Shown here in pieces: positions 3,403 through 6,686 of a DNA stretch of 11,701 bases; the stretch's first letter is position 1, and each line of letters starts with the position of its first letter. The notes under the pieces are model-generated. The model did not search any database. It worked only from the letters and a program-made list of their open reading frames with translations, and was not told where the DNA came from. This DNA is from a virus. Made by a program: the position numbers and the translations under genes. The stretch lies in the UHGV virus genome UHGV-0310186; one strand, given 5' to 3'.

Positions 3403-3870
3403 TTAGTTCAGGCACTGAGTGCGGATATAGTCCTGTGCCCCTTCCAGCTGCTTCTGCATTGTCATCAACCGTTCTCTGAGGATGAAATAATCCCGTTCAG
3501 CGGTGTCTGCCAGTCGGGGGCCGGTTGCATTATCCACGCCGGAGGTGCCGGTGGCTTCACGCACGGTACCGGAGCAGGTGGCGTTGATCCGCAGGCGCTT
3601 ACGACCAGCGGCAACATCAGCACGCAGAGTTTCATTTTCAGCTCTCGCATCGGCTAATTCCCTCGAGTATCTGGCATCAAGTTCAGCGACATCACGCTGG
3701 CGTATCTGCATATCAGTAATTGTCGCGTTCGCCAGTTTCAGCTCACTGACTTTTTTATCGCGCTGCGCTTTGTAGGTGATGGCGTTATCGCGGTAATGAT
3801 TCAGCCCCAGACTAAGCACACCACAGGCTACCAGCAGGACAATAATCACCACACACAGAACACGGTTCAT
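3403..3870 (-). CDS. Rz: Rz i-spanin (inner-membrane spanin subunit)
   Basis: [75 protein letters not shown]... is close to lambda Rz (..[53 protein letters not shown]..). Start set at ATG 3870, not the upstream ATG at 3954. Confidence 0.9.
3465..3650 (-). CDS. Rz1: Rz1 o-spanin lipoprotein, embedded in Rz in another frame
   Basis: [61 protein letters not shown] resembles lambda Rz1 (MLKLKMMLCVMMLPLVVVGC...[32 protein letters not shown]). Lipobox LVVSAC, proline-rich. Confidence 0.85.
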
Positions 3871-3871
3871 A

Positions 3872-3958
3872 TCACCACCAACGGATTGCCCAGACCAGAA
3901 CAGCAATGGCCACAATACGAATGGCAAATGCCATTGCCCGAATAAGTTCAGCACTCAT
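3872..3958 (-). CDS. 28-aa hydrophobic peptide ORF, translationally coupled to Rz
   Basis: ATG at 3958; encodes [28 protein letters not shown]. Its TGA stop (3872-3874) lies 1 nt before the Rz ATG. Too short to appear in the supplied ORF track; coding status uncertain. Confidence 0.3.
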
Positions 3959-3969
3959 CTTTTTAAAGT

Positions 3970-4220
3970 TCACGATTTCAGCGCAATGACCAGTTTTGCC
4001 AGCCCATACAGCATCGGAGACACAGCAATACCAACAGCCACCCACTTAATAGCAAAAGCCAGCGCTCTGCTGATGTCATCAGTCACTGTCACCCCAGCAG
4101 CCCCGACGAAGACAACATCACCCAGGCGAGGGACAGAAAAAGAGCAACCAGCATTAGTGAAAATGAAATACCGACAATCACACACAGGACCTTTGCCGGC
4201 GTTATGAGTTTGTCTGACAT
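3970..4220 (-). pseudogene. Small membrane-protein gene, apparently frameshifted near 4095 in a G-rich run
   Basis: ATG at 4220 with an AAGGGG Shine-Dalgarno 5 nt upstream opens MSDKLITPAKVLCVIVGISFSLMLVALFLSLAWVMLSSSGLLG and stops at 4092-4094. Another frame continues directly with ..VTVTDDISRALAFAIKWVAVGIAVSPMLYGLAKLVIALKS to 3970. The motif RALAFAIKWVAVGIAV recurs as [14 protein letters not shown] in the 28-aa ORF downstream. Confidence 0.3.
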
Positions 4221-4390
4221 AGCTACCCCTTAATTGCCACAATTAACTGGGATACTACCCATAAAAAAGGGATGCTCCAGACCAGCAAAAATTTCCAGTT
4301 TGGTAATTGACTAATCATGAGTCGCAACTCCCTAATCAGTTTGCTAAAATCAATCAAGGCAGCCTCCCATAGCTTACTGCCATAAAAACA

Positions 4391-4423
4391 AAACCCCGCT
4401 TGCTGCCAACAAACGGGGTTTTT
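4391..4423. terminator. Bidirectional rho-independent terminator-like hairpin
   Basis: AAAACCCCG-(15-nt loop)-CGGGGTTTTT: GC stem CCCCG/CGGGG with an A-tract on one side and a T-tract on the other, so it could terminate either strand. About 90 nt downstream of the endolysin stop. Confidence 0.55.
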
Positions 4424-4512
4424 ACTTTTATTCACTTACATTTTGCCAGTTCGCAGGATTTCGTGTTATCCGTCCGCCTTGGCCAACGTCATTTATTAGC
4501 AAAATATTCTGC

Positions 4513-4875
4513 TTATCTGTCGATTCCCCAGCACGCCAGCGCGCTCTCCTGGTCACGACGGGATACCTGACCGTAACAGTTATTTGAGCGAATACGGCAG
4601 TCCCTGCCACCGTCCTTAATCCACCAGCGAATCGCCTCACACGCTCCCCTGCGGTCACCAGCATTCAGCCGCTTATAAAACGTCGACGGGAAACACTTAC
4701 CGGGGCCAATGTTATAGGGACAGAATGACGCTATACCCGCTTTCTGTGGTTCGGTCAGTGGAACTTTAATATTGCGCTCCACCCATGCCAGCGCCTTATC
4801 CCGTTCAATGGCATTAACCTGGTCGCATTTTTCCTTCGACAGTTTCATGCCCGGAATAACAGGTTTACCATCCAC
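4513..4875 (-). pseudogene. R: Endolysin (phage lysozyme, SAR-endolysin R21/933W-R type) 3' portion, detached from its 5' portion
   Basis: VDGKPVIPGMKLSKEKCDQVNAIERDKALAWVERNIKVPLTEPQKAGIASFCPYNIGPGKCFPSTFYKRLNAGDRRGACEAIRWWIKDGGRDCRIRSNNCYGQVSRRDQESALACWGIDR aligns with the C-terminal two-thirds of P21-type lysozymes. It lacks the SAR domain and catalytic Glu, and begins at a GTG created by the junction. Confidence 0.85.
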
Positions 4876-4915
4876 CTAATCCTCTACTGAAATTGTCAGA
4901 TATATTTCAGCCATC
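4832..4915 (-). repeat. Left composite inverted-duplication block: copy of element a (4832-4875) and element b (4877-4915)
   Basis: 4832-4875 is the exact reverse complement of 5173-5216 (44 bp); 4877-4915 is the exact reverse complement of 5218-5256 (39 bp). Element b contains the 7-bp palindromic arms CTGAAAT/ATTTCAG and a GAGGA Shine-Dalgarno. Confidence 0.9.
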
Positions 4916-5001
4916 AGGAAAAACGCCAGTGTCCTACCGCTGGCGGGCTGAAGATTTAACATATCCAGGGATTCGGAACCGATAAATCCTGATAAATATC
5001 C

Positions 5002-5226
5002 ATGAACACCAAAATCAAATATGGCCTGTCGGCTGCCGTTCTGGCGTTGATTGCCATCGGTGCGCCTGCGCCTGATATTCTCGACCAGTTTCTGGATGAA
5101 AAAGAAGGTAACCACACAACGGCATACCGTGATGGTGCGGGTATCTGGACCATCTGCCGCGGTGCCACAATGGTGGATGGTAAACCTGTTATTCCGGGCA
5201 TGAAACTGTCGAAGGAAGATGGCTGA
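5002..5226 (+). pseudogene. R: Endolysin 5' portion (SAR signal-anchor and catalytic E-8aa-D-5aa-T motif) ending at a premature stop
   Basis: MNTKIKYGLSAAVLALIAIGAPAPDILDQFLDEKEGNHTTAYRDGAGIWTICRGATMVDGKPVIPGMKLSKEDG*: a Gly/Ala-rich SAR domain followed by the lysozyme catalytic motif. It shares the 15 codons VDGKPVIPGMKLSKE with the minus-strand 3' portion, then runs into element b and stops. Confidence 0.85.
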
Positions 5227-5256
5227 AATATATCTGACAATTTCAGTAGAGGATTA
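5173..5256 (+). repeat. Right composite inverted-duplication block: element a (5173-5216) and element b (5218-5256)
   Basis: Same two elements as 4832-4915, each inverted. Order is a then b on this side, b then a when the left block is read on the minus strand. Confidence 0.9.
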
Positions 5257-5259
5257 ACC

Positions 5260-5574
5260 ATGCATAACGATCAACATAATTATGATTTATGCCTGCAAGC
5301 CATAAATGAGCGGGTAAAATCAGAGTGCCTCTTACTCCTCCCACAAGAACACGATGCAGTAAAATCCATTCAGGCTGAGCCGTATGGACATCTCACACCT
5401 GTGACTCTCGGCATTATCGCCAGAGCATTAACACAGCCCATGCTTATGCGTATTAAGACCAATATAAATAACTGGTTGAATGAAGAATTAAGCTACCTTG
5501 ATTGTGAGTGGGACAATCATTACGCAAAAACACAAAAAGAACGCATCTTCAGTCGATTATCCAGCAACAGATAA
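5260..5574 (+). CDS. Hypothetical protein (104 aa), plus strand, convergent with the 268-aa ORF
   Basis: ATG at 5260 preceded by AGAGGA inside element b; 104 codons, lower GC than the flanking phage genes. No family recognised by eye. Confidence 0.45.
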   Translation: MHNDQHNYDLCLQAINERVKSECLLLLPQEHDAVKSIQAEPYGHLTPVTLGIIARALTQPMLMRIKTNINNWLNEELSYLDCEWDNHYAKTQKERIFSRLSSNR

Positions 5575-5583
5575 CGAGCCACC

Positions 5584-6390
5584 TTATATACGCCCTTTCA
5601 GATAAGTCATCCCCGGCTGCATCCAGTCAACAGGTGCTTTCTTAAAGGGCGTATTATCAAAATCACGCAGAAGAGCCTCCAGCACAACTGCATCATTGTC
5701 AGCACCACTGGCCATCATTTCAATCTCAGCTGCTACCTGCAGATATCCCATGCAACGACCAATGCGCTTCATCAGCCCCTGCTTTTTATTGTTCTTCAGG
5801 TAATCAATGGCAAATTCAATGAGCGCCTCACTATGCTGGTGCGATGGCGGTGTTAATTTCCCATTTTCTGAGATGGTTATTTTCCCGCCATCTCCGTATA
5901 CAACAAAGGATGGCCGGTTACACTCCCATTCCTGATCTTTATCAGGTGCAGACGCAATAAAATAACGTTTATTTCCTTCCTCTCCGGCACTTTTAACCGT
6001 AATGGAGTACTCAGACTGCAGACAAGACGCCTCTTTTTCTGACCGCAGTGTTGACGGCGGCATCTTCAGAGAACAAGTAATTCTTCCCGGTAGCTTTCCT
6101 TTGTAGGTTATCAACACATCCTGCGCCTCTAAAATTACGGGGCGCTTTTCCGGCAACGGTTCGTTCCATTCACATAACCCGGCAGCAACATCCATGAAAA
6201 ACTGCTTCGCCTGCTTTTTCGCCTCAGCTTCGTAAAACTCCAGCGTGGCACCTTCAGTACGGTCAAGACTAATCGCCACATCTGGCAACAACAGCGACGC
6301 TTGCCCGTCACCTTCCGGCTTCACAGTAACAGTAACCTTATCCCCGTAATTATTTATCCCCTTAACAACCAGTTCATATTTTTTATTCAT
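5584..6390 (-). CDS. Hypothetical protein (268 aa) between holin and endolysin, translationally coupled to the holin
   Basis: ATG at 6390 lies 4 nt after the holin stop, with a GGGGAGAG Shine-Dalgarno inside the holin 3' end. Long uninterrupted ORF; no family recognised by eye. Confidence 0.65.
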   Translation of the reverse strand: MNKKYELVVKGINNYGDKVTVTVKPEGDGQASLLLPDVAISLDRTEGATLEFYEAEAKKQAKQFFMDVAAGLCEWNEPLPEKRPVILEAQDVLITYKGKLPGRITCSLKMPPSTLRSEKEASCLQSEYSITVKSAGEEGNKRYFIASAPDKDQEWECNRPSFVVYGDGGKITISENGKLTPPSHQHSEALIEFAIDYLKNNKKQGLMKRIGRCMGYLQVAAEIEMMASGADNDAVVLEALLRDFDNTPFKKAPVDWMQPGMTYLKGRI

Positions 6391-6394
6391 CACT

Positions 6395-6610
6395 TTACTC
6401 TCCCCGCGCCGCCTTACGCCGGTCCTCTTTGATTTTGAAATACAGGTTAGTCAGGTACGTCAGCAGCCCAAACAGCAGACTCCCCAGCACGCCTATTGCC
6501 GCCCACTGAGACGGGGAAACCCTGTCCAGCAACTGCAGGAACCAGTAGCCCGTTCCCACCGCTGACGTGGTGTATGACACACCTGTTGTGATTTTTTCCA
6601 TCTGGTACAT
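6395..6610 (-). CDS. S: Pinholin (phage 21 S21 family) with dual-start motif
   Basis: [71 protein letters not shown] is near-identical in pattern to P21 S21 (..[51 protein letters not shown]). Two in-frame starts (MYQM..., MEK...) fit a holin/antiholin pair. GGGAGA Shine-Dalgarno. Confidence 0.9.
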
Positions 6611-6686
6611 ACCCCGTCTCCCGTTATCCGGAAGCTCACAACAATATAAAGACCACCGGCACACACCGATGGTCCCTTGCGCAGGC

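Follow-up and report, generated by a model that had tools for sequence, protein, structure and literature searches.

A mobile chain of four small hydrophobic genes between endolysin and Rz in prophages of Escherichia coli

THE ENDOLYSIN–RZ INTERVAL

The lysis genes of an Escherichia coli prophage lie on the minus strand of the UHGV virus genome UHGV-0310186, a stretch of 11,701 nt (hereafter the window, always at its full length). From the endolysin stop codon (4513) to the ATG of Rz (3870), 642 nt are counted, in agreement with the ~640 bp given by a first-pass annotation made from the sequence alone. Along the minus strand from 5′ to 3′, it holds a mosaic stretch of ~60 nt, then a terminator hairpin, and then four abutting hydrophobic open reading frames (ORFs), here called O1 to O4 (Table 1). 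The first-pass annotation saw in the ORFs either a single multi-transmembrane protein, interrupted by a frameshift or by a sequencing error, or separate micro-proteins. Comparison with related prophages shows, at the level of sequence, that O1–O4 are separate, conserved genes under purifying selection and that the module they form is mobile and dispensable.

Table 1. Lysis genes, terminator hairpin, and micro-ORFs on the window (TM, transmembrane)
Feature	Position	Strand	Best match and remarks
Phage-21-type class II holin (pinholin family)	6395..6619	-	PF04971, 7.2e-33
Lysozyme (endolysin) gene, 3′ part, residues ~57-177	4513..4875	-	PF00959, 3.2e-16; upstream boundary of the region
Intrinsic-terminator hairpin AAAACCCCG...CGGGGTTTT + T-run, heads the micro-ORF module	4380..4422	-	15-pair stem at 4422..4390
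O1, 31-residue single-TM micro-ORF MISQLPNWKFLLVWSIPFLWVVSQLIVAIKG	4223..4318	-	phrog_6632, 6e-5
O2, 43-residue single-TM micro-ORF MSDKLITPAKVLCVIVGISFSLMLVALFLSLAWVMLSSSGLLG	4089..4220	-	phrog_4906, 4.5e-21; RefSeq WP_001280935, hypothetical
O3′, 40 residues from GTG 4092 or 38 residues from GTG 4086, TVTDDISRALAFAIKWVAVGIAVSPMLYGLAKLVIALKS (..TDDISRALAFAIKWVAVGIAVSPMLYGLAKLVIALKS)	3970..4092	-	phrog_1115, 6.4e-25
O4, 28-residue single-TM micro-ORF	3872..3958	-	phrog_4493, 4.4e-7; WP_032140280
Rz (i-spanin)	3403..3870	-	PF03245, 7.5e-50; ATG 1 nt past the O4 stop
Rz1 (o-spanin lipoprotein), embedded in Rz	3465..3650	-	PF06085, 1.7e-21

THE FOUR MICRO-ORFs

A chain of four tightly abutting hydrophobic ORFs appears in none of 1000 dinucleotide-preserving shuffles (the longest chain is of two ORFs, in 4 of the 1000). 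O1 is the weakest-supported of the four. Its ATG is preceded, 9 nt upstream, by GGGAG and, in those prophages where an Ant gene lies directly upstream, the O1 start overlaps the Ant stop as ATGA. A homolog of O1, MSVVSSNWKFLLIWIVFFLWGISGLISALRWW, is found at locus L174. For O2, the start at ATG 4220 with AAGGGG 5 nt upstream is as first described; its stop codon, however, is at 4091..4089, and the positions 4092-4094 previously taken for it are the last sense codon (a slip of 3 nt). The second hydrophobic frame ends at 3970 as reported, with its stop codon at 3972..3970. The true start of O3′ is uncertain, with 51 residues according to the Prokaryotic Genome Annotation Pipeline (PGAP) and 38 residues according to phage annotators. 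O4 has an ATG of its own at 3958 and an alternative GTG start at 3973 that overlaps the O3′ stop. Its TGA, also correctly placed in the first-pass annotation, is part of TGATATG, which includes the start of Rz. That description was thus accurate on the ORFs that it saw, but it missed O1 and did not note the terminator hairpin.

Each of the four ORFs encodes mainly one hydrophobic helix, with 17-residue Kyte–Doolittle maxima of 1.9–2.8, and ends with a C-terminal tail of 2–16 residues bearing at most one charge. The predicted helix should enter the inner membrane, and the positive charges favor an N-terminus in the cytoplasm. In RefSeq and in phage records, the micro-ORFs occur as separate hypothetical proteins with inconsistent starts (O1 is not annotated by PGAP, and O3′ gets a different, overlapping start). 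The database entries that are the same proteins or direct homologs are WP_001280935, WP_042004856, WP_032140280, and ECs_2740 and ECs_5740 of the Sakai strain, all of them hypothetical.

SEPARATE GENES IN PERMUTED ORDERS

We sorted 170 loci by ORF arrangement and compared 72 independent loci with the window arrangement for insertions and deletions (indels). With R for the endolysin gene and O3L for the full-length form of O3, the order R-O1-O2-O3′-O4-Rz of the window is present in 70 loci of the 170 and the order R-O3L-O2-Rz in 66 (the arrangement of Sakai Sp14, with ECs_2740 + ECs_5740). Other orders are rarer: R-Ant-O1-O2-O3′-O4-Rz (five loci), R-O3L-O4-Rz (four), R-O3L-O2-O3′-O4-Rz (three), R-O3-Rz (two), and R-O1-O2-Rz and R-O5-O3-O6-O4-Rz (one each). 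Since O2 follows O3 in one frequent order and precedes it in another, the two cannot be pieces of one gene. The mosaic junctions fall at ORF boundaries, and O1-O2 and O3-O4 behave as sub-modules that would recombine there.

Within the window arrangement, the distance from the R stop to the Rz start is 648 nt as extracted in 72 of the 72 loci, with zero indels and an invariant GGGG run; between the terminator and Rz, only 14 sites are variable. A query of 661 nt containing the array shows 100% identity with E. coli NCCP15648 and 99.8% with O104:H4 2011C-3493; at a coverage of at least 80%, it is matched in 587 complete E. coli genomes. Among the 223 database clusters listed, the only fusion is a singleton that joins O3 and O2 (P0039); no other fused homolog is among the clusters returned. 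The longer database “proteins” of these families are spurious upstream extensions.

These data bear directly on the readings of the first-pass annotation. The presence of neighboring ORFs in different frames with related motifs, together with the singleton P0039, is what favors one fragmented multi-transmembrane protein, the break being either a frameshift or an error of sequencing in the G-run near 4095. The 72 copies of equal length, the 587 genomes, the permuted orders and the subsets of ORFs, the sites outside lysis cassettes, and the use of GGGGTGA as a conserved stop/start overlap (see below) refute it, and we consider either version extremely improbable. The reading as separate micro-proteins is borne out by purifying selection in the called frames and by start signals that are kept in different upstream contexts.

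PURIFYING SELECTION

Ratios of nonsynonymous to synonymous polymorphism (pN/pS) were computed by the Nei–Gojobori method over unique haplotypes, with the two off-frames as controls. The lowest value, 0.19, is that of O3L (0.06 in codons 13-22), with off-frames at 0.77 and 3.3. O4 follows with 0.35 (off-frames 0.66 and 2.7). In O2, the ratio is 0.45 over the whole ORF and 0.21 over codons 1-26, for which the off-frames are at ~1. The signal is weak in O1 (0.54, against 0.91 and 1.07 in the off-frames), with only four haplotypes. In the window arrangement, O3′ shows two synonymous and no nonsynonymous variants. The Shine–Dalgarno (SD) sequence before the O2 ATG is kept in three unrelated upstream contexts, as AAGGGG-N5, AAGGGAGGA-N6, and AAGAGGA-N6, and two rare variants of O2 carry in-frame deletions. 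The C-terminal half of O2, predicted to face the periplasm, is variable, with three alleles at codon 31.

TRANSLATIONAL COUPLING

The stop of O1 is 2 nt ahead of the O2 ATG, and the final codons of O1 (ATT AAG GGG TAG) hold the SD of O2. O2 and O3′ share the stop/start overlap GTGA. The same overlap joins O3′ and O4, unless O4 starts from the ATG 11 nt downstream. At the end of the chain, the final codons of O4, TGG TGG TGA (TGGTGGTGA), constitute the SD for Rz. The GGGGTGA at the end of O2 starts O3′ in the window, and it starts Rz (with a GTG start) in O26 and PhiR12-type prophages. The layout with RWW, a stop, and the next start occurs also in distant members of the family. Ribosomes would then be handed from cistron to cistron through O1–O4 and on to Rz. 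Where a cassette has no module, the coupling of Rz is straight to the endolysin gene; in the Qin prophage of K-12, the endolysin gene rrrQ overlaps rzpQ directly, with nothing in the middle, which suggests that the ORF chain restores a coupling to Rz that the insertion had broken. Because TGG TGG TGA/TAG also serves the next gene as its ribosome-binding site, the RWW tail may have been shaped by coupling signals at the nucleotide level. The ..A[IL]RWW-stop tail of O4 is shared by unrelated-looking micro-proteins at L175 597-737 and L174 731-829.

TERMINATOR HAIRPIN AND EXPRESSION

The hairpin at 4422-4390 is strong and bidirectional in appearance. Its outer stem is invariant and its inner stem and loop are variable; the innermost predicted pair shows compensatory changes (nine variants, in different contexts). 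A similar hairpin stands ahead of the family members at loci L092, L120, L172, L174, and L175, and one is present in every context examined. A crude consensus scan of the region found no sigma-70-like site between the terminator and O1. The scan gave two promoter-like sites, with 2.6 expected from shuffles, and one promoter-like site is on the opposite strand (4214-4243). In modules of the O3L type, there are only ~35 nt from the terminator to the ATG. The upstream terminator and the lack of a detected promoter of its own imply that the module would be read only by antiterminated late transcription. As judged from lambdoid biology, only late RNA polymerase antiterminated by Q should transcribe it, along with the genes for holin, endolysin, and Rz/Rz1.

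Downstream from the terminator, the leaders of O3-type genes (L008, L003, L099, and L010; L175 290-330) contain an inverted repeat, CCTTG..(6-9 nt)..CAAGG, whose 3′ arm overlaps the SD (CAAGGGAGAA). The repeat is kept even in the distant L175 member and is a possible hairpin for translational control.

FAMILY RELATIONS

All matches in PHROG are to families of unknown function: 6632 for O1, 4906 for O2, 1115/3246/4493 for O3′, and 4493/3246 for O4 (with O3L, the match reaches 1.4e-42). At E ≤ 1, none of O1–O4 matches Pfam, so that no holin, spanin, or DUF2730 family is indicated, and none matches PADLOC; neither NCBIfam, a PDB profile search, nor Rfam gives a match for the ORFs or the RNA of the region.

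The motif RALAFAIKWVAVGIAV of one ORF is related to a 14-residue motif of the second, as the first-pass annotation had seen: BLASTP between O3′ and O4 gives E = 2e-4, both match phrog_4493/3246, and natural hybrids exist, such as P0117 with an O3 N-terminus joined to an O4 tail. The repeat is real, but it reflects paralogy between two separate genes and not a duplication within one protein. Only 28 relatives, nearly all of 20-77 residues, came out of a profile search against 1.84 billion cluster representatives; the full length in the O3 family is 48-60 residues. In the family layout that these relatives define, an optional basic extension (xKYKRILLRLT) comes first, then MKNGLE-x-x-AP, about eight residues, A-x-AFAI[KR], the TM helix, and a tail, which is either ..YGLAKLIIALKS (ALKS type) or ..WAIRWW. 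Full-length relatives of O4, with the MKNGLE N-terminus and an IRWW tail, include P0227 and P0117. Both O3′ and O4 are without the MKNGLE..AP segment, the most constrained part of the family, and are therefore N-terminally truncated tandem derivatives of one small family. The AlphaFold model of O3L consists of a short N-terminal helix and a helix of 37 residues, with a predicted local distance difference test score of ~88 over the long helix.

In full-length O3 genes, Met1 and the basic extension (KYKRILLRLT) are followed by an internal SD (GAGG N6) before Met13, which is kept even where the sequence of the extension differs (GGAGG-N5-ATG in L172). The pattern hints at a dual start, Met1/Met13, and with it at two isoforms; it does not apply to O3′ and O4 of the window, which are without that region. 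At L174 540-600, the nucleotides of the 5′ extension and the internal-SD region (TATAAACGAATTnTGTTGAGGTTGACTATGAAAAA) are nearly identical to those in the O3L of E. coli; elsewhere, the sequence of the L174 protein has visibly diverged. The identity suggests either a constraint at the RNA level or a recombination boundary, and a dual start is possible there too. Further micro-ORFs occur in other arrays (L009 1162-1865; L092 2218-2367), namely O5, MTPKAANIAGIILALSAMIGAIGFAVAAIAYVCR (phrog_12997), and O6, MIKAETTSQGADDAAKIIAVCRGIRHILTPVAWIICTALVAYTTIYLNR, which is ATGA-coupled to O4. The O5 from L009 has a nonsignificant match (0.064) to the holin family phrog_526.

DISTRIBUTION AND GENOMIC SETTINGS

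Among 5426 complete E. coli genomes, 1532 carry O2 and 1536 carry the O3 core (~28% in each case), and one genome can have as many as 5-7 copies. By protein searches, members of the families were found in Escherichia, Salmonella, and a few metagenomic contigs; a pattern scan of the representative genomes of GTDB gave no confirmed relative. Phage records of the PhiR12 and PhiR5 series (listed hosts E. coli C or K-12) carry the micro-ORFs, as do the O104:H4 and O157:H7 lineages, and relatives of O3 are found in Stx1c and Stx2k phage records. The literature gave no paper with the peptide sequences, ECs2740/ECs5740, or any of the WP accessions, and searches on small TM proteins of lysis cassettes gave only analogies.

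By far the commonest site in E. coli is inside a pinholin-type lysis cassette, with coupling to Rz. Elsewhere, homologs are found after tail-fiber genes (L172, with terminators on both sides and no downstream partner for coupling), before a tape-measure gene with an O1 homolog alongside (L174), before a portal gene (L175), and after a structural gene with an Ig-like domain (L092). A downstream terminator was seen only in L172 and L175. In L175, a neighboring ORF of 46 residues with the RWW tail matches a PHROG labeled “moron ... membrane protein”. The module itself lies between conserved genes, is present or absent among relatives, and is missing in K-12 Qin, as a dispensable insertion of the moron kind would be. 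In some prophages, different Ant-like (antirepressor-type) genes occupy the endolysin/Rz junction (L002 2138-2833; L120), one of them ATGA-coupled to O1, and the junction appears to be a general insertion hot spot.

NEIGHBORING SEQUENCES

The first ~60 nt past the endolysin stop (~4437-4495) contain 26 variable sites, nearly all the polymorphism among the 72 near-identical arrays. This stretch looks like a recombination or mosaic junction.

The 3′ part of the endolysin gene matches the intact lysozyme gene of E. coli SCU-484 with 100% identity from its beginning on. The SCU-484 prophage (L171) is otherwise 100% identical, but relative to it a segment of 341 bp (4877-5217) is inverted within an altered region of 4831-5256; the segment contains the 5′ end of the endolysin gene and DNA upstream of it. 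The boundaries are duplicated as inverted repeats of 46 nt (4831-4876/5172-5217) and 39 nt (4877-4915/5218-5256). The inversion splits the lysozyme gene into an N-terminal part of 74 codons on the plus strand (5002-5226) and a C-terminal part of 120 codons on the minus strand. The inversion-duplication could be a real template switch or an assembly artifact. If real, it would leave the prophage of the window unable to make endolysin.

Between holin and endolysin, an ORF of 269 residues (5584-6393, minus strand) joins an N-terminal DUF1327/YdfR domain to a phrog_1085 part; at the native locus, PGAP annotates only a partial YdfR. On the opposite strand, an ORF of 104 residues (5260-5574, plus strand) matches phrog_1853. 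Neither has a match in PADLOC, and phrog_1085 and phrog_1853 give no function.

WHAT THE MODULE MAY DO

We consider, with a probability of roughly 0.55, that O1–O4 are single-pass membrane micro-proteins that are expressed late and are dispensable, and that the module carrying them is mobile and headed by a terminator; their late translation and their membrane location are what we infer from the sequences. As to activity, tuning of the membrane steps of pinholin, signal-arrest-release (SAR) endolysin, and spanin is the single most likely one, although we advance it only tentatively. Through helix–helix contacts or a mild depolarization, the O-peptides would tune lysis as accessory, not essential, factors. 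A role related to lysis is suggested by the dominant site in pinholin cassettes, the coupling to Rz, the apparently late-only expression, and the precedents of Lcc6 and releasin (see below). A more far-reaching proposal, which we regard as doubtful, is that the MKNGLE/AFAI[KR]/RWW family, with O1 and O2, forms a new class of single-helix modulators of lysis timing. Its full-length genes may make a dual-start pair; the peptides would bind TM2 of the pinholin, the SAR helix, or the Rz anchor, and the arrays, combinatorial and recombining, would allow temperate phages to retune the timing of lysis, or to exclude competitors, one module at a time.

Several observations weigh against the reading as late membrane micro-proteins. 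The diversity of window-type arrays is very low, so that O1 and O3′ are individually weakly supported, and the O1 copy of prophage L006 has a nonsense codon. O3′ lacks the most conserved N-terminal segment of the family and its native start, and it relies on a GTG at or near the O2 stop; O4 is without a good SD. The supplement of a ribosome-profiling (Ribo-seq) study of Sakai has no entry for the locus, from cells that were not reported to be prophage-induced and in which late-gene translation is not expected. The promoter scan, a crude consensus one, leaves room for expression in the lysogen. Finally, specificity for lysis is weakened because members of the family sit far from lysis genes and many cassettes have no module.

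The homologs outside lysis cassettes (L172, L174, L175, and L092) lead to the main competing explanation, in which the peptides are moron-type accessory membrane factors unrelated to lysis and lodged in a tolerant R/Rz junction. They could block DNA entry by superinfecting phages or modulate host transporters or sensors, for which bacterial small proteins such as SgrT, MgrB, and AcrZ, modulators of inner-membrane transporters or sensors, offer a comparison. The moron-labeled PHROG matched by the neighbor in L175, the Ant-like gene at the junction, and the presence/absence polymorphism agree with it, and the variability of the half of O2 predicted to be periplasmic, with its three alleles at codon 31, would be in keeping with an arms-race interface. 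Exclusion, however, needs expression in the lysogen, which is not apparent with no promoter detected after the terminator; there is no match in PADLOC, and the position in E. coli is overwhelmingly in the lysis cassette and coupled to Rz. We hold this explanation to be possible but on the unlikely side.

Two further explanations deny the peptides a function or make them toxic. The lack of the conserved N-terminal segment in O3′ and O4, the O1 nonsense allele, and the nearly clonal array would be expected of functionless peptides, either decaying partial duplicates or relay ORFs that hand ribosomes to Rz/Rz1 after a terminator-bearing insertion. The C-terminal codons, being the SD or start of the next gene, might by themselves keep the ends of the ORFs conserved. 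Yet purifying selection acts along the N-terminal half of O2 and the whole length of O3, not just at the ends; the family is conserved across Escherichia, Salmonella, and distant metagenomic members, with the single hydrophobic helix kept, and the members in L172 stand alone between two terminators with nothing downstream for coupling. We regard functionless relays or remnants as improbable. A locus resembling type I toxin–antitoxin systems, with small hydrophobic toxic peptides under an antisense RNA, would agree with the size and hydrophobicity of the peptides and with the promoter-like site on the opposite strand. Such sites are not above shuffles, however, Rfam gives no match, no promoter of its own is detected, and the ORFs are chained to Rz in a late operon, all of which makes this possibility very slight.

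The micro-genes sit in the prophage lysis region of more than one-quarter of complete E. coli genomes. If they do modulate pinholin/SAR lysis, they would influence when phages are released in pathogenic E. coli and in what yield and, indirectly, the release of toxin. The array also exemplifies how genes of 50 codons or less are annotated inconsistently by pipelines, and how coupling chains, with stop-proximal codons serving as the next ribosome-binding site, and mosaicism at gene boundaries operate at the scale of micro-genes.

COMPARISON WITH KNOWN SYSTEMS

O1–O4 are already in databases as hypothetical proteins and PHROG members, and nothing in them is categorically new. What is new here, from sequence comparison, is that the frameshift reading is wrong, that the array is modular and widespread, that O3′ and O4 are truncated paralogs, and that the ends of the ORFs are coupling signals.

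Among small membrane proteins of lysis cassettes, the dual-start holins and antiholins of lambda (S107/S105) and phage 21 (S71/S68) set the timing of lysis. In phage P2, LysA, with several TM segments, lies between the endolysin K and the spanin LysB. The module shares with P2 lysA its position between endolysin and spanin, and the internal SD and Met of full-length O3 recall the dual starts. The O-proteins are not homologous to these antiholins or to LysA; each has a single TM helix and lacks a charged C-terminal tail, and the O3′ of the window is without the dual-start region. They share one TM helix with holins but have no highly charged C-terminal tail and no match to a holin family. With respect to two-component spanins, O1–O4 have no match to PF03245 or PF06085, which only the downstream Rz and Rz1 match.

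The classical morons (lambda bor/lom, HK97 gp15) are dispensable, terminator-bounded genes of the late region, often for envelope proteins, with their own promoter and expression in the lysogen. Like them, the module is inserted between conserved late genes and variably present; unlike them, it shows no detected promoter, and its terminator is at the 5′ side.

The releasin gp25 of Mu (DUF2730/PF10805) is membrane-tethered, encoded a few genes from a SAR endolysin, and promotes endolysin release; it has 99 residues, with an N-out/C-in TM helix and a cytoplasmic domain of 73 residues (PMC9239132). O1–O4 differ from gp25 in being only 28-43 residues long, with no Pfam match, no soluble domain, and almost nothing outside the membrane. 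In the Shewanella prophage LambdaSo, Lcc6 is a TM protein of 65 residues needed at the pinholin step (bioRxiv 10.1101/2024.01.23.576932). Lysis depends strictly on Lcc6, whose gene is not part of the lysis cassette, whereas the O1–O4 module lies within the cassette and is dispensable, since many cassettes have none. As a small TM protein acting with a pinholin, Lcc6 offers the best functional analogy. If O1–O4 do modulate lysis, they would be an addition to the short list of noncanonical lysis factors to which releasin and Lcc6 belong.

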